IMG/VR virus record: IMGVR_UViG_3300031669_000014
Coordinates: 16,565 to 80,564 of that record
Reading direction: 5' to 3' (one strand)
Length of the DNA: 64,000 nucleotides
Source: a virus
The notes below the pieces were generated by a model. It saw nothing but the letters and a program-made list of their open reading frames with translations, was not told where the DNA came from and did no database searches. The first letter of the stretch is position 1. Each line of letters begins with the position of its first letter. Both the position numbers and the translations under genes were made by a program. This document shows positions 16,027 through 57,199 of the stretch, piece after piece.

Positions 16027-16464
16027 CTAAAAGTTAACATCAATCTTTTCCCCTTGCAGGATCCGCCGGTCTGTCTGCGTCGCCCAGCTCGGGGCCATCG
16101 GCCAGCCGTTTAATCTGTCGCCTGCCTTACACGGGCACCGGCAGTAGCGATCTTCCCCTTCCTGTAAAACTGTGATATAACCCCCGCCGCCACAAACGGA
16201 GCAACCCGTTTTTTTTAGTGGCTGAAAGGCTGTATTGCGCTGATCGTCCTTAATACTTTGTATTGCGCCCTGGATATCTGCAACCGTGGGGAAGAATTTT
16301 GCCGTGGCCAGCACCTTTTTAAGCGCTTCTTTAACCTGCGGATAAGGTAATTCCCCTAACATTTCTTCCCAAGTCATCCCAATTTGTACAAGTTCTTTAT
16401 TCTGGATACTTGGGAAACTTCCATAAGCTAGAGTTATTAAACTTTTAATCTCCTGTTTATTCAC
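16027..16464 (-). CDS. Helicase loader/inhibitor-like protein (G39P-like) with Zn finger
   Basis: W.EML.ELPY..V..AL..V....KFFPTVADI; directly after the initiator. Confidence 0.7.
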   Translation of the reverse strand: MNKQEIKSLITLAYGSFPSIQNKELVQIGMTWEEMLGELPYPQVKEALKKVLATAKFFPTVADIQGAIQSIKDDQRNTAFQPLKKTGCSVCGGGGYITVLQEGEDRYCRCPCKAGDRLNGWPMAPSWATQTDRRILQGEKIDVNF

Positions 16465-17227
16465 TGTTCGCCCACTCCTCTAAAGCCTGTCTTCCGGTTG
16501 ACCAACCTTCCTGGCTTTGTCCGCCCTCATGGTATTCATCCTCCCAACCTTTAGCATTTAGCCAGGTTGCCGGATGGGGAATCCATTTCCCATTTTCCTT
16601 TGTCCACCCCGCCGAAGTCTTGGCCCGCTTTAACGCATCAAGAATGACTGCTAGAAGCTGTTCGTCCGGTTTGATTTTATTCCATGCTTTTTCAGCCTGG
16701 CCCTTAGACTTTTTATTTGGATATGATTGCCAAAATTCGTCAAACATTTCTTGATGATTTATTTTTTCTTGCGCAAGTATTTTAAGATCTTTATTCTTTA
16801 CATTCTTTACATTCTTTACATTCTTGTTTGTGTTCATTTGTTGTTCATTTGCTGTTCGTTTGTTGTTCATTTGTTGTTCATTTTGTTGTTCAGGTTGGTC
16901 CCCTTCCCCCTGATAAAAAGCCCAATTCTCAATGGTTACAATAGAAAATTTGTTGTTCGGCTGGATGACCAATCTTTCACTCGATTCTAATTTTTTTACG
17001 TAACGATACAGTGACGAGGGATGTAGCTTTAATTCTGCCGCAGCCTTGTCTCTGCCGAAGACAAATTGCCCTGGTTTTAGGATAACTTTTTGAAGTCCAA
17101 CAAGTTGCTCATGCTCTTTATGACTGGCTTTAAGTAAACACCACACCCAAACTTTAAGGAGGTTCTCATTGTCAAATAACGGGTTGTCTAATAAACACCG
17201 GTGAAGCTTGATGTAGCCGCTTGCCAT
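16457..17227 (-). CDS. Phage replication initiator (replisome organizer)
   Basis: GYIKLHR N-terminus, internal repeats, FDEFW..YP.K and PHPATWLN C-terminal domain. Confidence 0.88.
   Translation of the reverse strand: MASGYIKLHRCLLDNPLFDNENLLKVWVWCLLKASHKEHEQLVGLQKVILKPGQFVFGRDKAAAELKLHPSSLYRYVKKLESSERLVIQPNNKFSIVTIENWAFYQGEGDQPEQQNEQQMNNKRTANEQQMNTNKNVKNVKNVKNKDLKILAQEKINHQEMFDEFWQSYPNKKSKGQAEKAWNKIKPDEQLLAVILDALKRAKTSAGWTKENGKWIPHPATWLNAKGWEDEYHEGGQSQEGWSTGRQALEEWANSE
16791..16892. repeat. Iteron-like repeats, putative lytic origin (phage A)
   Basis: Tandem ATTCTTTAC and repeated TTGTTGTTCAT units inside the initiator gene. Confidence 0.7.
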
Positions 17228-17559
17228 CCCCGCGCCTCCCGCTCATATCTGATCTCCCCACGCCGGCTATGCCGCCCTTACCCCCCGTGACTCTAAAACA
17301 AACTCAACTGGTCAAGATTCTTTGCCGCCATTGGATTCAGCCAACACTCCCCGCACGTCCGCCGGTGTAACTCCGTCTCTCTGCTCACGGTACACTTGGA
17401 GAGGCACCCCTCGCGGCGGACTTGGCAGCGGCAGGTTGGGTTTGTCACGCCTTCTCCCCCTCCTTCGGCGGCGGCACATCAGCTCCGCACTCTACACAGC
17501 GCCAGGTCCCCTCCGCATCTTCCGACCAGCGCTCTTCCCCGCATCCGGGGCAAATCCTT

Positions 17560-22730: not shown

Positions 22731-23330
22731 TTCACCCCCTCCAGCCTCTTCGGTTACCATAACTTAAACAACCCTCCCTTCGGCTATTTGATTTTCACAG
22801 GTTTGGAGCCTAGATAAAATTTCATCAAGTGTTCTGCTAGTCTCCCACAGGGAACGTCCCAAAGTATCCAACTGGCGATTGAGCGAATCCAACACAGGGT
22901 AATCAACCTTTCTATGCAATTCACTTCTTATGGCGTCTACCTCTTGTTGCAATGCCCCTATCTGTGCCCACGGAGGACTATTCACTTGGCGGTCACGCTC
23001 CTTTCTCCGGCCTCGCCAGTTAGTTAGAATATCCCTGCCCACAAAACGGACAGTATTTATGAAGCATGTTGTATTTCTTATTCTTGGTTTTGGTTGCTCC
23101 AGTTTTGCAATTTTGTTCATAATTAACTTCCACCACGGAGAAGGTTTTTATACCACTGTATTTTTCGTCAAAGAATATAGCTGTATCAATAAGTGAGGAT
23201 GATTCAATGGTCTCGTTTTCTTTTTTGGTGGAGTTAAATTGTTCCTTGATTTTTTCTTCAATATCTTTAATGCAGGTACACACATTTTCACCCCCTCCGG
23301 CCTCGCCGGTTACCATAACTTAAACAACCC
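22731..23330. repeat. 44-bp direct repeat pair (22731-22774 and 23287-23330)
   Basis: TTCACCCCCTCC.GCCTC..CGGTTACCATAACTTAAACAACCC; partial third copy near 63715-63750. Confidence 0.8.
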
Positions 23331-23418
23331 GTTGAACGTCCACAGCATGACTGTGATGGCTACCGCTGCCACCAGGACGTTGAACCCCTTATCGACGATG
23401 TACCCGATTAACGCATAT

Positions 23419-23895
23419 CTAGCCAACGTCTTGAGGGTTTGCACCTTGCTCCACCTCCTTTGTAAACCTAACCATTTTTAGACATCTTTTTATTAACTGT
23501 GATATTTCTTCCGATATTTTCTCCGGTTCGCCAGTTGGTTCTTCTTCAACATCCTTGTATTTGTAAACAATGCCGCAATTTAAACAAGCCGCAGTAATAA
23601 GTACACCAGCGTCTAGATATTCTGGCCGACCTCCGCATACCGGGCAATTCGGGCCGTCTGCAACTCGGTGGGCCTCGACATGAACCACCGGCCACTCGCC
23701 TATAGGCGTCTGTATCGGCTCCCCCATGCGCACGGTGTATCCGTCCATGTGTATCTTGCTAAGTTTGTAATTGTATAAAATCTGCGTGATAACTTCGTCC
23801 ATGTGTACCCGGGATAGTTTGCCGTAAGCGTTAAGTCGAACGAGATCGTGGATTCTGGCGCGGTCGGTGGCTGTTGGCAATGCGTGGAGTTTCAT
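23419..23895 (-). CDS. Zn-ribbon hypothetical protein
   Basis: CPVCG...CLNCG; AGGAGG RBS. Confidence 0.65.
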   Translation of the reverse strand: MKLHALPTATDRARIHDLVRLNAYGKLSRVHMDEVITQILYNYKLSKIHMDGYTVRMGEPIQTPIGEWPVVHVEAHRVADGPNCPVCGGRPEYLDAGVLITAACLNCGIVYKYKDVEEEPTGEPEKISEEISQLIKRCLKMVRFTKEVEQGANPQDVG

Positions 23896-24308: not shown

Positions 24309-24710
24309 TTGGTAAATGTGGGGATTGGTAAAAGATTGAGAGAATTAAGGGAGCGGGAAGGGCTTACTCAGGAAGAGTTGGGTAAAATAATCAATCAAAA
24401 AAAGTCCAATATCTCCAAATATGAAAATGGCAAATTACAGCCAAGTCTTGAAACAATAGAATCTCTTTTAGGATTCTTTGGAGTTTCGCCTAATTATTTT
24501 TTTAATTATACTCCCCATGCCGAACACAACGAAAAAAATAAAACGGCCTATTTCAAACCAACTAACCAGATCCCAGAAGAGAAACGGAAACTCATAGAAA
24601 AACTTCTGGAATTCAATGATAATGATTACAAAAAAATTGAGGCTATTGCCGAAGTTTTCATTCAGATAGACAGATCAAAGAACGAGCAGGCAGCCGCAAT
24701 GGGAAGCTAA
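24309..24710 (+). CDS. CI-like XRE repressor
   Basis: RLRELRE..GLTQEELG...NISKYENG HTH. Confidence 0.9.
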   Translation: MVNVGIGKRLRELREREGLTQEELGKIINQKKSNISKYENGKLQPSLETIESLLGFFGVSPNYFFNYTPHAEHNEKNKTAYFKPTNQIPEEKRKLIEKLLEFNDNDYKKIEAIAEVFIQIDRSKNEQAAAMGS

Positions 24711-24826
24711 TTCTTTTTCTGCCAAGGTGGATAAGGCGAATCCTGAAGCGAAAAAAATAAGAACCCCCGGAGCCGATCAGAAGGGTTCTCGTACATAAGA
24801 CAAATCACTAAATTAGGAGATGAATT

Positions 24827-24958
24827 GTGTTTATGTGTAATAATTATGACTTACTTATAATTTGCTATAAAAGCGGTCAGATACCGGAGGATGAATGGCA
24901 GGAAATTTTAAAAGACGAGGTATTTTATTGTTATTATCAAAAACAAATAAGGTTATAA
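24827..24958 (+). CDS. Small hypothetical protein (43 aa, not in the ORF track)
   Basis: AGGAGA RBS and GTG start; followed by a terminator. Confidence 0.5.
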   Translation: MFMCNNYDLLIICYKSGQIPEDEWQEILKDEVFYCYYQKQIRL

Positions 24959-24964
24959 AATAAA

Positions 24965-24995
24965 AATAACCCCCTCGTGTGAGGGGGTTTTATTC
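24965..24995. terminator. Bidirectional intrinsic terminator
   Basis: AACCCCCTC-GTGT-GAGGGGGTT flanked by A and T tracts. Confidence 0.8.
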
Positions 24996-25010
24996 TGCGT
25001 CGTAATTTAG

Positions 25011-25039
25011 TTGACTAGCCATATGTTGGGGCGTATAAT
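25011..25039 (+). promoter_or_regulatory. sigmaA promoter (sense RNA)
   Basis: TTGACT-17 nt-TATAAT. Confidence 0.85.
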
Positions 25040-25057
25040 GGAAGGGACAACCATATA

Positions 25058-25137
25058 ATGAAAGTAACCCCCCGGTTAGACCTCCGAAGGGTTACAGGCG
25101 GGACAACCTCACAACAGGCCGGCCCGACGGTTACTGT
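25058..25137 (-). ncRNA. ~80-nt antisense countertranscript
   Basis: Own promoter; two hairpins whose G-U pairs form only on this strand; the second is followed by UUUCAUU. Confidence 0.75.
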
Positions 25138-25143
25138 ACTAAG

Positions 25144-25172
25144 ATTGTAACTTACATTTTTAGTATAGTCAA
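25144..25172 (-). promoter_or_regulatory. sigmaA promoter (antisense RNA)
   Basis: TTGACT-17 nt-TACAAT on the minus strand. Confidence 0.8.
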
Positions 25173-25184
25173 GACAGAATTCCC

Positions 25185-25219
25185 GGCTTTTTGTGAGGTT
25201 CCTCGCAAGAAGCCTTTTT
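25185..25219 (+). terminator. Attenuator (conditional terminator)
   Basis: 13-bp stem plus TTTTT; its 5' arm can instead pair with 25105-25122 (17 of 18 positions). Confidence 0.75.
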
Positions 25220-25610
25220 GATTATCCGAAAAGGTTTCGGGTAAATAGGCTGATAACCAAGCATGCCCGGGTAGTGACCGGGATTATAACCGTTAGATGG
25301 GGATGTTTTTCCTTCCCAGAATTGAAACCGTGCCACGATGCTAACGAACCTATGATGCACCCTGGAAACCGTGGTGTAGAGGCTACGAGCAGATGAGAGA
25401 TGTCACCGATGCTAACCAAGCAGGCTGTAAGATATGGTGGACCTGGGGGCCGTCAAAAGACTAGGTGATGCGGCGTAATAGCCGCCTGTTGAAGGGACGA
25501 CCGACCGAGACTAGGCCAAGTTCCAAGACAGTGTTTTCCCGCCAGCGCGGGATCTCTGTCTCTAAAACTCCCTCCCTCAACCGGCCCCCATCCTAAAATA
25601 ATCACTCCGG
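25220..25610 (+). ncRNA. Long structured non-coding RNA segment (candidate replication primer)
   Basis: Several hairpins and long-range TGGGGGCCG/CGGCCCCCA pairing; no credible ORF. Confidence 0.5.
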
Positions 25611-25619
25611 AGGAATTAC

Positions 25620-26057
25620 ATGCACTACCTAAACACGAAAGAAGCAGCAGCAATCCTAAACTGTGGGACCAAGAATGTTACCCTGATGTGTGCTGCCGGG
25701 AAGTTTCCAGGGTCCAAAAAGGTGATGGGGAAGAAAACGGACGAGTGGCGCATACCGGCCCAGGAAGTAATTGACTACCAGGCTAACAAGGAAGTTGAGG
25801 CCGAAGTTTTGCCGCCTGAAAGCCATGAACTGGTCACGGTTAAGTCTCTGGCTGATTTTTTTATGGATGAACGGAGAAGGAACGATGCTGAACATGATGA
25901 AACAAGGAGAATACTTGAAGAAGAAGTAAAAAGGAGGAATGAAGAAATAATGGAGTTACGCGGGATACTGGCGAAACAGGGGGAAGAAGTCGCGGTAGTT
26001 TGGGGGAAGGTTGCGGAGATTGAAAAGAAAAAGCGCCCGTGGTGGCGCTGGTGGTAG
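25620..26057 (+). CDS. HTH, coiled-coil and aromatic-tail protein (pSK1 Par-like architecture)
   Basis: YLNTKEAAAIL excisionase-type HTH, EEVKRRNEEIMELR coiled coil, KKRPWWRWW tail; GGAGG RBS. Confidence 0.7.
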   Translation: MHYLNTKEAAAILNCGTKNVTLMCAAGKFPGSKKVMGKKTDEWRIPAQEVIDYQANKEVEAEVLPPESHELVTVKSLADFFMDERRRNDAEHDETRRILEEEVKRRNEEIMELRGILAKQGEEVAVVWGKVAEIEKKKRPWWRWW

Positions 26058-26061
26058 TTTA

Positions 26062-26505
26062 TTAAATGGATTGTTTTAACTCTTTTTCATATTCATAATA
26101 TTCATATAGATTTCCGTGATAACTTTCTATTAATTTATCTTTGTTTTCTTTTATGGCAAAACAACCAGTAAATACATAGCATTTCTTAAGGGATTCAATA
26201 TCATTGACTGTGACACCAACTATTTTCTTGTCCAATATCTTTTCTGCTTGATCGCTCCCACCATGCCACCATTGACCATTACAGTGAATTATTTTGCCAT
26301 TTTCTAGTGATATATCGAATTCGCGTCCAGCAAAGGCTTTGAATCTACCCCAAGGTGCTTCATAATATAAACAATCCACAAATGTTTCTGATTCATCTAT
26401 GCCAATTATAATGTTGTCATATTTTTTGTATTTAAATTTAATTTCATTTTTCATAACCAAAGCAACACCGCTATTAAATTTTACCAATGCCATTAATTCG
26501 TTCAT
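26062..26505 (-). CDS. Hypothetical protein (AT-rich)
   Basis: 147-aa ORF with RBS. Confidence 0.65.
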   Translation of the reverse strand: MNELMALVKFNSGVALVMKNEIKFKYKKYDNIIIGIDESETFVDCLYYEAPWGRFKAFAGREFDISLENGKIIHCNGQWWHGGSDQAEKILDKKIVGVTVNDIESLKKCYVFTGCFAIKENKDKLIESYHGNLYEYYEYEKELKQSI

Positions 26506-26508
26506 AAC

Positions 26509-26877
26509 TCATTCCCCCTCAGGCCAGAATATCTCCATAAACAATTCCCCGCTACACCTCACATTAAAACACGCCTTTCCGCGTACTTTCAGCATCGAAG
26601 GGCTGTCCAATACGCTGCGCTTGATCTCCGTGGTTACATTAGCCGGGAACAGTGTTACGACCTCCTGTAGCCCTACATAAAAACGGATATATCCATCGTC
26701 GGTAGTCTCGTACTCTTCGCAGATGATCCGGATCATGGCCCCGTGGCGGTAACTGAAAATATGGGGCGGTCCGTACTTTTTGAGGCAGACTTGCAGTTCA
26801 AGGCTCACTTTGAGTCCTCCTTCCGTTGGCGGTATTCGTCCCGATCTAACTTTTCCAGCGCAACCAGTTTCAACCAC
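26509..26877 (-). CDS. Hypothetical protein
   Basis: ORF in operon; true start may be the internal GTG after GGAGGA. Confidence 0.5.
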   Translation of the reverse strand: MVETGCAGKVRSGRIPPTEGGLKVSLELQVCLKKYGPPHIFSYRHGAMIRIICEEYETTDDGYIRFYVGLQEVVTLFPANVTTEIKRSVLDSPSMLKVRGKACFNVRCSGELFMEIFWPEGE

Positions 26878-27404: not shown

Positions 27405-27451
27405 GTCAAGTCTACGCGGAATATACACGGAAGTAATTCCGCATAAAACAG

Positions 27452-27478
27452 AAAAACCCCCGACCGAAGCCGGGGGTA
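27452..27478 (-). terminator. Terminator after the lysis module
   Basis: ACCCCCGG...CGGGGG-TTTTT on the minus strand. Confidence 0.75.
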
Positions 27479-27492
27479 GGGGATGGATCATA

Positions 27493-27747
27493 TTAACTTA
27501 TAGTAAACGGTGGTTGCGGTAAAGGGGTCCCGCTGGTCTGTTGTTGCCATTGAATATCCTTGGGATACTGGACGCCATGAGGGAAAGGGGGATTTTGGCG
27601 GTTCCCAACTTGATAATGTTTGCATTTTAATTCAACGCTGAACATCGTTTCGGTTTTCGGAAGTTGTACTGGGAGATGTCGGTCGAGTTCGGCGTATTCC
27701 TGTTTGTGACCGCAAACCTGATTATGTGTGCATGAATCGCATTTCAT
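27493..27747 (-). CDS. Small Cys-rich protein
   Basis: MKCDSCTH..VC; AAAGGA RBS. Confidence 0.5.
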   Translation of the reverse strand: MKCDSCTHNQVCGHKQEYAELDRHLPVQLPKTETMFSVELKCKHYQVGNRQNPPFPHGVQYPKDIQWQQQTSGTPLPQPPFTIS

Positions 27748-55321: not shown

Positions 55322-55765
55322 CTAAAAATTAACAGTAACCTTTTCCCCTTGCAGGATCCGCCGGTCTGTCTGCGTCGCCCAGCTCGGGGCCATCGGCCAG
55401 CCGTTTAATCTGTCGCCTGCTTGGCACGGGCACCGGCAGTAGCGCTCCTCGCCATCCTGCAAAATTACTCTAAAGCCACCACCTCCACAAACAGTACATC
55501 CCGTTTTTTTTAGCGGCTGAAAGGAAGTGTTTCGCTGATCGTCTTTGATGCTTTGTATTGCCCCCTGGATATCTGCAACCGTGGGGAAGAATTTTGCCGT
55601 GGCCAGCACCTTTTTAAGCGCCTCTTTAACCTGCTGATAAGGTAATTTCCCCAACATTTCTGCCCAAAGTTTTGCCGTTTCAGCTAATTCCTTGTTTTGC
55701 ATACCTGGAAAATTAGCTGCCGCAAAAGTTATTAAGTTTTTAATTTCCTGCTTAGTCACTACCAT
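55322..55765 (-). CDS. Helicase loader/inhibitor-like protein (G39P-like)
   Basis: Homolog of 16027-16464. Confidence 0.7.
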   Translation of the reverse strand: MVVTKQEIKNLITFAAANFPGMQNKELAETAKLWAEMLGKLPYQQVKEALKKVLATAKFFPTVADIQGAIQSIKDDQRNTSFQPLKKTGCTVCGGGGFRVILQDGEERYCRCPCQAGDRLNGWPMAPSWATQTDRRILQGEKVTVNF

Positions 55766-56495
55766 TCACCCACCTATCAAGACTTTGTTCTGCTACTGAT
55801 TTTTGTTGCACTGGGGAAGGTCTTGTTTTATTTTCTTCTTCTTCAAGCCTGGCAATAACCCAATTCAAAACCGCCCGATAATCTGATTTATACCGCTTCC
55901 CATTAGCCCCCTTGTAGTTGTCCAATATTTCAACGCACCGATTAAAACGTTCTTCGCTTCCGAGTTTCGCCACAAGTGATGAGTATTCATCATTAGTCAG
56001 GCTGACAAATTCGGCATACTTGAATTTTTGTTGTAGGGGGGGAGGGGGGTTAAGATCTTTATTCTTTACATTCTTTACATTCTTTACATTCTTGTTTGTG
56101 TTCATTTGTTGTTCATTTGTTGTTCGTTTGTTGTTCATTTGTTGTTCATTTTGTTGTTCAGGCTGATCCCCTTCACCCTGATAAAAAACCCAATTCTCAA
56201 TGGTTACAATAGAAAATTTGTTGTTCGGCTGGATGACCAAACTTTCACTCAATTCTAATTTTTTTACGTAACGATACAGTGACGAGGGATGTAGCTTTAA
56301 TTCTGCCGCAGCCTTGTCTCTGCCGAAGACAAATTGCCCTGGTTTTAGGATAACTTTTTGAAGTCCAACAAGTTGTTCATGCTCTTTATGACTGGCTTTA
56401 AGTAAACACCAAACCCAAACTTTAAGGAGGTTTTCATTATCAAATAACGGATTGTCTAATAAACATCTGTGAAGTTTGATGTATCCGCTTGCCAT
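55752..56495 (-). CDS. Phage replication initiator
   Basis: N-terminus near-identical to 16457-17227; different C-terminal domain (YKSDYRAVLNW). Confidence 0.88.
   Translation of the reverse strand: MASGYIKLHRCLLDNPLFDNENLLKVWVWCLLKASHKEHEQLVGLQKVILKPGQFVFGRDKAAAELKLHPSSLYRYVKKLELSESLVIQPNNKFSIVTIENWVFYQGEGDQPEQQNEQQMNNKRTTNEQQMNTNKNVKNVKNVKNKDLNPPPPLQQKFKYAEFVSLTNDEYSSLVAKLGSEERFNRCVEILDNYKGANGKRYKSDYRAVLNWVIARLEEEENKTRPSPVQQKSVAEQSLDRWVNGSD
56059..56160. repeat. Iteron-like repeats, putative lytic origin (phage B)
   Basis: Same repeat units as 16791-16892. Confidence 0.7.
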
Positions 56496-56506
56496 CCCCG
56501 CGCCCC

Positions 56507-57199
56507 CTAAAATCCAAGTGCCAGCTGATATCCCTTGCCGCTTTCCTTCTCAAGTGCCATAAGATGCCTGACACGGGCTTCCTGCTCCTCTTTCCTGTCT
56601 TTGCCTGGGGCAAGCCGCTTCACTTTTTCTCGGTTCTTAAACACCCACCACGTACTGTCAACTTGGGTAAATGGGAATTGTGTCAGTATCCGCTCACTGG
56701 TAATTCCTAAAGCATGAAACCTTCCCTCGGGGTGCCGGCTGTAAACTTGCTCCAACCAGTAAACTTTATCTCGGTATGGAAGTCCAACCGTTCCACCAAG
56801 GCCAACTAGCGCGTATTTTGCAATAAGTAGCTCAAGTAGTTCCCATGGCTCATTGTAGTGAAAAACAGGTATCGGGCTTAGCCCTGCCGCCTCCATGGTA
56901 GCCTGATTTACTGCCGTATCCTCCGGATTTCCAACTACATCAAGGTTAAAATACTGGGTTATGTGGTGCTCCCGGATATAGTCCATGTAATCATCAAGGC
57001 TAATGCTTCGACCGCGCTTCCATGCGCTATATGCTCCGGAGTCAAGTAGTACCTCAAACCCATACTCCCGGATAATCTTCCAGCAGGAGTAGGTTGGTGG
57101 CTCAGCATAAGAAAGTATTATCCGCTTTCCACCGGCTCGAGCCAGGGTATGTAGAGTATTAGGTCTTTCCGTTCCCCCGAAGTACACTTCCAATTTCAT
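56507..57199 (-). CDS. TGT-fold (DpdA-like) transglycosylase
   Basis: LLDSGAYS, NLDVVG, PIPVFH, VGLGG, FHALG and VDSTWW motifs. Confidence 0.65.
   Translation of the reverse strand: MKLEVYFGGTERPNTLHTLARAGGKRIILSYAEPPTYSCWKIIREYGFEVLLDSGAYSAWKRGRSISLDDYMDYIREHHITQYFNLDVVGNPEDTAVNQATMEAAGLSPIPVFHYNEPWELLELLIAKYALVGLGGTVGLPYRDKVYWLEQVYSRHPEGRFHALGITSERILTQFPFTQVDSTWWVFKNREKVKRLAPGKDRKEEQEARVRHLMALEKESGKGYQLALGF

Follow-up and report, generated by a model that had tools for sequence, protein, structure and literature searches.

An orphan non-coding spacer behind a predicted antisense-RNA attenuator, in a phage slot that holds rep-ori cassettes in relatives

Several described systems resemble parts of the locus considered here. 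ROOL and GOLLD are large phage non-coding RNAs represented in Rfam. In origins of the lambda O / ori-lambda type, the iterons lie inside the initiator gene. The attenuation mechanism of the plasmids pT181 and pIP501 is reportedly set out in the work of Novick and Brantl. G-rich RNA over a C-rich template favours a persistent RNA-DNA hybrid, and the RNA of ColE1 is said, after Masukata and Tomizawa in 1990, to be G-rich at the origin. Replicons of the ColE1 type depend on RNase H and DNA polymerase I and have an RNA-DNA junction where replication starts. ColE1 has no initiator gene and relies on RNA II of ~550 nt; its RNA I (~110 nt) blocks the persistent hybrid by refolding RNA II, not by transcription termination (PMC5043065). 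Antisense-RNA transcription attenuation of rep is named for pT181 and for pIP501/pAMbeta1 (PMC2879508).

We analysed a window of 64,000 nucleotides from an 80,564-bp virus record of IMG/VR. Our subject, called the spacer below, comprises positions 25220-25605 of the window (~390-400 nt). An initial annotation had described it as a structured non-coding read-through RNA, possibly a ColE1-like R-loop primer of replication, or else an elaborate leader for the downstream HTH gene.

Locus layout and the predicted attenuator

The genes and predicted control elements around the spacer are as follows, in window coordinates.

24309-24710: Xre/HTH_3 repressor gene, upstream of the spacer
24968-24989, both strands: intrinsic terminator working in both directions, at the end of the Xre repressor unit and at the left edge of the variable cassette
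25011-25039, plus strand: sense promoter TTGACT-17-TATAAT, 11 of 12 consensus matches
25054-25095, minus strand: antisense-RNA terminator, a hairpin at 25095-25064 with a T-rich tail
25105-25122, plus strand: antiterminator 5' arm, pairing with 25183-25200 and lying within the antisense RNA target
25144-25172, minus strand: antisense (countertranscript) promoter TTGACT-17-TACAAT, 10 of 12 consensus matches
25185-25219, plus strand: attenuator, a 13-bp stem (25185-25214) followed by T5, with the spacer starting directly 3'
25220-25605, plus strand: spacer, orphan and non-coding, in the slot of rep-ori in relatives
25599-25618: 13-nt palindrome TAATCACTCCGGA/TCCGGAGGAATTA, overlapping the GGAGG ribosome-binding site of HTH_17
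25620-26057, plus strand: gene of 145 codons for an HTH_17 and coiled-coil protein

From the sense promoter to the HTH_17 start, ~570 nt carry no credible ORF in any frame, in agreement with the non-coding nature and the ~560 nt from promoter to end claimed in the initial annotation. The spacer is real non-coding DNA, as all of its reading frames lack a coding look. HTH_17 is the only protein encodable by a transcript that reads past it, and from 26062 genes on the minus strand converge toward HTH_17. No tRNA or tmRNA was found in the window. The palindrome just ahead of HTH_17 is a candidate operator or a small hairpin at the ribosome-binding site.

Two neighbouring segments vary. Between repressor and terminator, a 43-codon AT-rich ORF (24827-24958) occupies a variable slot; in the related locus L007 a 222-codon gene with a Cu_amine_oxidN1 domain stands in its place. 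Downstream, the convergent gene at 26062-26505 (147 codons, phrog_26990, of unknown function) is followed by renewed homology to L007 at 26513. Promoter, leader, spacer, HTH_17 and convergent gene together make up a block of ~1.5 kb (24998-26512) that is specific to unit B, the second of the two phage units described below.

The leader between sense promoter and spacer has the elements of an antisense-RNA attenuator. From the positions of the minus-strand promoter and terminator, we predict an antisense RNA of ~80 nt, running from about 25137 to 25056. The segments 25105-25122 and 25183-25200 form an 18-nt repeat with 89% complementarity, whose pairing is used in the minimum free energy (MFE) folds; the second of them doubles as the 5' arm of the terminator at 25185-25219. 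Two features of the pT181/pIP501 type are recognisable at the sequence level: convergent promoters with a countertranscript complementary to the leader, and a predicted antiterminator and terminator that would exclude each other, with the antisense target lying over the antiterminator arm. A third, an initiator as the regulated gene, is found in the relatives, whereas in the window no rep follows the attenuator. We therefore treat the leader at 25047-25225 as a predicted antisense-RNA attenuator of the pT181/pIP501 type.

Its switch would probably operate in the following way. Transcription would begin at the promoter 25011-25039. The ~80-nt antisense RNA, made from the promoter at 25172-25144, would pair with the nascent leader and cover the antiterminator arm at 25105-25122. 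The terminator at 25185-25219 would then form, and most transcripts would end there. Those that escape would cross the spacer and be translated only at HTH_17 (25620), so that in the window copy the regulated product would be the HTH_17 protein and the spacer its 5' untranslated region (UTR). Since the spacer lies directly behind an intrinsic attenuator, it would be made only as read-through RNA; by this anatomy, and under predicted antisense control, the read-through RNA of the initial annotation holds.

The same slot in related phages and the two-unit record

The HTH_17 protein has four relatives in a large protein collection, and their alignment was used to retrieve the loci L002-L009 from JGI metagenomes and IMG/VR. 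Searches of PDB and NCBIfam gave it no further name. A closer relative, P0001, is 89% identical and constitutes an independent sighting of an HTH_17 of the unit-B type. The HTH_17 gene of unit B has diverged, with ~67-70% nucleotide identity to the other copies.

Blastn shows homology of L005, L006 and L007 to the window at the end of the repressor, over the terminator at 24968-24989 (conserved at 86-88% in all three) and over the HTH_17 gene. The segment from ~24998 to 25606 aligns with nothing, and the homology of the window to its relatives restarts at ~25606. The frame of repressor, terminator, promoter, convergent antisense promoter and HTH_17 is common to six related loci. A sense promoter and a convergent minus-strand promoter, the latter 130-160 nt downstream in the relatives, occur in the window and in L003, L005, L006, L007 and L009.

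Inside this frame, L002/L003, L005, L006, L007 and L009 carry a leader followed by one or two HTH_36 ORFs (a DnaD_N-like winged helix), accompanied in L002 and L005 by an HNH domain or gene. Within the HTH_36 ORF, in its 3' part, lie tandem iterons whose kind depends on the protein type, with spacings of 24/21, 23/23/23, 15 and 33/15 bp. The HTH_17 start, which the HTH_36 ORF overlaps, is closely preceded by an AT-rich run and by a DnaA box, TTATCCACA (TTATCCATA in L009). The attenuator of L005, on the plus strand, stands directly before the ribosome-binding site of rep, and that of the window directly before the spacer. Cassettes with a single rep measure 450-490 nt in the relatives, against ~400 nt for the spacer. 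Judged by its sequence, the slot of the relatives is a plasmid-style, countertranscript-controlled rep-ori cassette beside a repressor, predicted to have exchangeable specificity.

At least four initiator/iteron types have been swapped among otherwise similar phages. Over positions 1407-1719 of L004, a contig of 1.7 kb that comes from a sister sample, identity to window 27407-27719, in unit B downstream of the cassette, is 99.7%. As this contig joins the end of an L007-type rep and an A-like HTH_17 gene to unit-B sequence, it testifies directly to recent module exchange at the slot. In L009, the most distant relative, a tyrosine recombinase lies directly upstream of the cassette (L009:2151-3181). 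It is encoded by a 205-codon ORF with a full catalytic domain, after an overlapping ORF of 152 codons; the two are possibly one split gene.

The 80,564-bp record consists of two related mosaic phage units of ~40 kb, A and B, arranged head to tail, which match collinearly at 70-96% with an offset of ~42 kb. Their relatives measure 35-48 kb. The record starts within an L003-type rep gene, its positions 1-1657 being 100% identical to positions 341-1997 of the 1,997-bp contig L003. Positions 1-778 of the record hold an L003-type rep end, iterons, a DnaA box and HTH_17 copy A (314-778), and thus a second, intact cassette. The end of the record is homologous to window 23295-23588, just short of an expected second repressor, and the spacer sits at the junction of the two units. 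Both units contain a small terminase and a G39P-like helicase loader of their own (loaders at 16027-16464 and 55322-55765), and the loaders adjoin a patch that is 96% identical between units (16782-17239, 56050-56507). From their sequence, the loader regions are taken to be an SPP1-like lytic replication module, separate from the cassette on the repressor side. Neither a tyrosine or serine recombinase nor ParA/ParB was found in the record. An Amidase_3 endolysin and the SPP1-like genes suggest that the host is probably a Firmicute.

The record is either a true tandem or cointegrate, or an assembler join through the shared repressor-terminator segment. If two related phage genomes had been joined in this way, the spacer or its neighbourhood would not belong to one molecule. 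The collinear units offset by ~42 kb beside relatives of 35-48 kb, a record that starts inside a rep gene (L003 position 341) and stops shortly before a second repressor would come, and the place of the spacer at the A/B junction would all fit such an assembly product. We nevertheless consider it improbable: the local order is that of every relative, assemblers do not invent 600 nt, and the HTH_17 of the unit-B type was seen independently in P0001. Because a mis-join would fall in the shared sequence from repressor to terminator, not in 600 unique and unmatched bases, the order terminator-promoter-leader-spacer-HTH_17 is most probably genuine. Completeness and size estimates of this "complete" 80.5-kb record are nonetheless to be treated with care.

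Folding and sequence content of the spacer

The following elements lie in the spacer or, for two of the repeated words, in the leader before it.

25041-25052, plus strand: GAAGGGACAACC, first copy of a GGGACRACC word that occurs three times in direct orientation
25097-25108, plus strand: second copy of the GGGACRACC word
25224-25242: hairpin ATCCGAAA/TTTCGGGT
25266-25282: hairpin CCCGG/CCGGG
25336-25348, repeated at 25407-25419, plus strand: CGATGCTAACGAA, containing a CGATGYWA word
25444-25452 and 25582-25590: perfect 9-nt long-range pair TGGGGGCCG / CGGCCCCCA
25444-25590: 3' domain of 147 nt, closed by this 9-bp helix and containing the GCGGC and AGACAG/TCCCGC hairpins
25471-25486: hairpin GCGGC/GCCGC
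25491-25502, plus strand: GAAGGGACGACC, third copy of the GGGACRACC word, within the spacer
25527-25561: nested hairpin AGACAG..TCCCGC/GCGGGA..CTGTCT
25560-25599, plus strand: C-rich, pyrimidine-rich tract with a GC skew of -0.81 and a purine fraction of 0.33

The hairpins, the 9-nt pair between 25444 and 25582 and the C-rich tract of the initial annotation were all recovered in place, in the sequence, the folds and the inverted repeats. By our own arithmetic, ~0.3 perfect 9-nt inverted pairs are expected by chance in 400 nt, where a single one is seen.

Folding energies were compared with shuffled sequences and with a background of 62 control windows from the DNA of this phage, each on its two strands, 124 in all (mean z -0.12, sd 1.03, minimum -2.79). 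Over 25220-25619, the plus strand has a fold z of -1.08, with 14 of 100 shuffles folding equally well, and the minus strand a z of -2.28. An unbiased sliding scan with 150-nt windows gives a z of ~0 on both strands for 25230-25430, and of -2.4 (plus) and -4.1 (minus) for 25440-25590. With the ends set at the 9-bp helix, a choice made post hoc, 25444-25590 reaches -3.6 on the plus and -4.6 on the minus strand. This 3' domain is the only sub-domain of the spacer that folds beyond background; its minus strand is the more stable one and folds better than all 124 background windows. The whole region from promoter to gene has a z of -4.98, a signal carried by the leader at 25047-25225 (z -6.33), outside the spacer; the sliding scan over 25050-25260 gives -5.5 to -6.9, with the plus strand favoured. 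Along its full length the spacer does not fold beyond shuffles, and 25444-25590 alone passes. The spacer is thus mostly no more folded than chance, with ~200 nt unstructured, and the structured RNA of the initial annotation shrinks to the 3' domain: it holds for 25444-25590, not for the whole stretch nor for 25230-25430.

The 3' domain could be a functional cis element, either an RNA element of the 5' UTR or a site at the DNA level, with the rest acting as a mere spacer. We regard this as unlikely, if worth keeping in mind. It is the only part of the spacer above the fold background (z -2.4 to -3.6 on the plus and -4.1 to -4.6 on the minus strand, against a minimum of -2.79), its end lies 30 nt upstream of the start codon, one GGGACGACC word falls inside it, and the 13-nt palindrome over the ribosome-binding site follows just downstream. 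As RNA, the domain could set translation or stability of HTH_17, possibly with the C-rich tract as a Rho loading site; as DNA, it could be bound by the HTH_17 protein as an operator, or serve as a signal for single-strand initiation. With the minus strand the stabler one and no minus-strand promoter seen there, a role at the DNA level or in protein binding looks likelier than a fold of the sense RNA. For the domain, however, no homologues were found, and hence no covariation, and no Rfam family matched. Its unbiased plus-strand z of -2.4 lies in the ~2% tail of the background, which is modest after scanning, and the ribosome-binding site is not sequestered in the MFE fold.

Searches for relatives of the spacer were negative throughout. 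Rfam, against which the initial annotation would have the RNA checked, was compared with the whole window at gathering cut-offs and with 24700-25900 at E <= 10; no family matched the spacer, where only a chance hit to CRISPR-DR2 (E 4.9) appeared. Blastn found no match to the spacer in phage and plasmid (PLSDB) collections, nor any in G001, the record containing L009; when window 24700-26100 was compared with the locus parts L002-L007 and L009 (blastn), the spacer matched nothing. The 80,564-bp record carries a single copy. Exact 20- and 21-mers of the spacer are absent from IMG/VR. The two-box pattern AGGGACAACC-N37-57-GGGACAACC occurs there at 39 loci, none of them related by blastn or tblastn, and a search of IMG/VR by way of the repressor protein led to no spacer homologue. 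Translated scans with a pseudo-ORF of the spacer gave none in IMG/VR and GTDB genomes. With phmmer, this pseudo-ORF had zero matches among 1.84 billion representatives, self included; since not even the self-match was returned, no gene caller had called it. The collections searched for homologues may omit records very near the window, and the absence of spacer homologues is not evidence for absence of function.

Traces of a lost gene or origin were sought in the same way. None of the Rep proteins from the slot of the relatives left a trace in the spacer by tblastn, and no HTH_36 was found in its six frames with stops read through. Local alignments of the spacer with the origin regions of five relatives scored within the shuffle range in every case. 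No DnaA box within one mismatch occurs in 25000-25620, and the spacer, at 52% GC, has no AT-rich unwinding stretch. Of an iteron-type theta origin, with its helically spaced tandem iterons, AT-rich stretch, DnaA box and initiator, the window has dispersed words only.

These words resemble the 23-bp iteron of L005, GGGACAA...CCGATGYWAC, whose first half matches the GGGACRACC word and whose second half matches CGATGYWA. Within 635 nt there are three copies of GGGACRA and two of CGATGYWA, every one on the plus strand, the window background (both strands) being 0.25 and 0.09 per kb; the words GAAGGGACRACC (25041, 25097, 25491) and CGATGCTAAC (25336, 25407) are enriched ~50-fold over it. L005 can be aligned collinearly with the window from the antisense -35 box across the attenuator and its T-run to ~40 nt into the spacer, where L005 has its ribosome-binding site and start codon. 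The alignment score of 13.5 compares with 9.8 +/- 1.4 for shuffles (z ~2.5), the best shuffle reaching 17.5. Words and alignment are weak signals; they would fit an L005-lineage cassette minus its genes and iteron array.

Such words could also make the spacer a trans-dependent or decoy origin, bound by the L005-type initiator of a co-resident related phage, an idea we judge improbable. The GGGACRACC and CGATGYWA words are enriched, always in the same orientation, and correspond to one half each of the iteron of L005; two of them fall at the +1 of the promoter and within the leader, frequent places for autoregulatory sites, and L005-type phages are present in the same sample series. In this reading, replication would depend on a helper, or titration or handcuffing would cause incompatibility. 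The words are short, however, and the region has no helically spaced tandem array, no AT-rich unwinding element (52% GC) and no DnaA box within one mismatch; nor does the record encode a homologue of L005 orf2.

Replication readings and comparison with known systems

ColE1 was the model put forward in the initial annotation. As in ColE1, no initiator gene was seen in this unit, and an untranslated transcript of ~570 nt and a short antisense RNA against its 5' part are predicted. A Rep-independent primer body of this kind would form an R-loop near 25560-25610 upon read-through, be processed and prime replication, while the antisense RNA set the copy number. In its favour, the slot is a replication slot in the relatives, the unit lacks a Rep gene, integrase and Par genes, the ~570 nt from promoter to end come near the 550 nt of RNA II (PMC5043065), and the cassette seems to have been replaced with clean boundaries. 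No origin can be located at the end of the ~570 nt, and the length match is uninformative by itself.

The differences from ColE1 weigh more. The predicted antisense RNA is wired to an intrinsic terminator hairpin, which is pT181/pIP501 logic, and not to primer refolding. At the proposed hybrid site the RNA is C-rich, and the GC skew and purine fraction of the tract there are of unfavourable polarity for a persistent hybrid; the G-run at 25444 pairs with the C-run of the RNA itself, not with the template. In the middle, the body of the would-be primer folds no better than chance over ~200 nt. The best match to Rfam RNAI (RF00106) scores 14.8 bits against a cut-off of 47 and lies at 24962-25059, outside the spacer; no RNAII-like Rfam match was found in 24700-25900, and PLSDB gave no similarity. 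Both units carry SPP1-like lytic replication genes, the other unit has a protein-based cassette, and the host is probably a Firmicute.

We thus rejected membership of the ColE1 family, which fails on terminator-independence, on G-richness of the RNA and on Rfam and PLSDB similarity, and we hold a primer function to be very improbable; it survives only because the slot has a replication context. A variant, equally remote in our estimate, would be a protein-free, transcript-primed replicon of the plasmid state in a Firmicute-type phage, with a pT181-style throttle and 25444-25590 as processing or primosome-loading site. Rep-less replication, unlikely as it is, would be the first ColE1-like principle outside the usual hosts, joined to a different control logic. 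Of the replication role in the initial annotation, the part concerning the slot stands, since it is rep-ori in the relatives (HTH_36, iterons, DnaA box), and the ColE1 features fall. Its observations are thereby partly confirmed, and its interpretation partly supported.

Our best reading, which we hold to be somewhat probable, is that the spacer is a vestigial or replaced rep-ori cassette and now serves as a long 5' UTR of HTH_17 under countertranscript attenuation. A leader for the HTH gene, the fallback in the initial annotation, is retained in this form with the same slight leaning in its favour. The spacer would be the remnant left after loss or replacement of rep-ori, keeping L005-type iteron-like words and the domain at 25444-25590. 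One rep-ori would be dispensable because the record has a second, intact cassette, if the units are truly joined. The homologous frame, the slot content of the relatives, the conserved predicted control, the non-coding and mostly unfolded state of the spacer and the iteron words argue for a vestige.

Several points speak against a vestige. No homologue of the spacer was found, so that neither decay nor conservation is directly seen. The similarity to L005 is weak (z ~2.5, with the best shuffle higher), and the argument from motifs rests on short words. The minus-strand fold of the 3' domain, beyond all 124 background windows, is not predicted by pure junk. With its clean boundaries and no obviously broken gene, the spacer could equally be a functional alternative cassette.

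If the vestige reading holds, the locus would be a case of ordinary module shuffling, with a leader for copy control still in place after its rep-ori cargo has gone, and there would be no reason to keep the proposed new RNA class. The cassette family around the spacer is more interesting than the spacer itself: a phage family would carry a plasmid-style, countertranscript-controlled cassette, of which the window member has the control part without the initiator. The window offers a clean natural test case for two questions: does the cassette serve as the lysogenic replicon, and can the leader determine incompatibility or exclusion by itself?

The remaining known systems each share a part with this locus. 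Like ROOL and GOLLD, the spacer amounts to several hundred non-coding nucleotides in a phage genome; unlike them, it has no Rfam match at E <= 10, no global fold signal and no homologues. The window copy differs from the lambda O / ori-lambda type in lacking an ORF with internal iterons, and holds scattered single words of one iteron type instead. Its relatives are of that type, with iterons, AT-rich run and DnaA box in the 3' part of the HTH_36 ORF.

The last comparison is that with pT181 and pIP501/pAMbeta1. Unlike in these plasmids, the element of the window lies in a phage, beside an Xre repressor; its attenuator is followed by 390 non-coding nucleotides and HTH_17, without rep, and no sequence similarity to these plasmids was found in PLSDB. 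Like them, it has convergent promoters, a short predicted countertranscript, a target over the antiterminator arm and a terminator upstream of the regulated frame. In the phage relatives the likeness extends further, as the regulated gene is an initiator-like gene with the predicted origin adjoining it.
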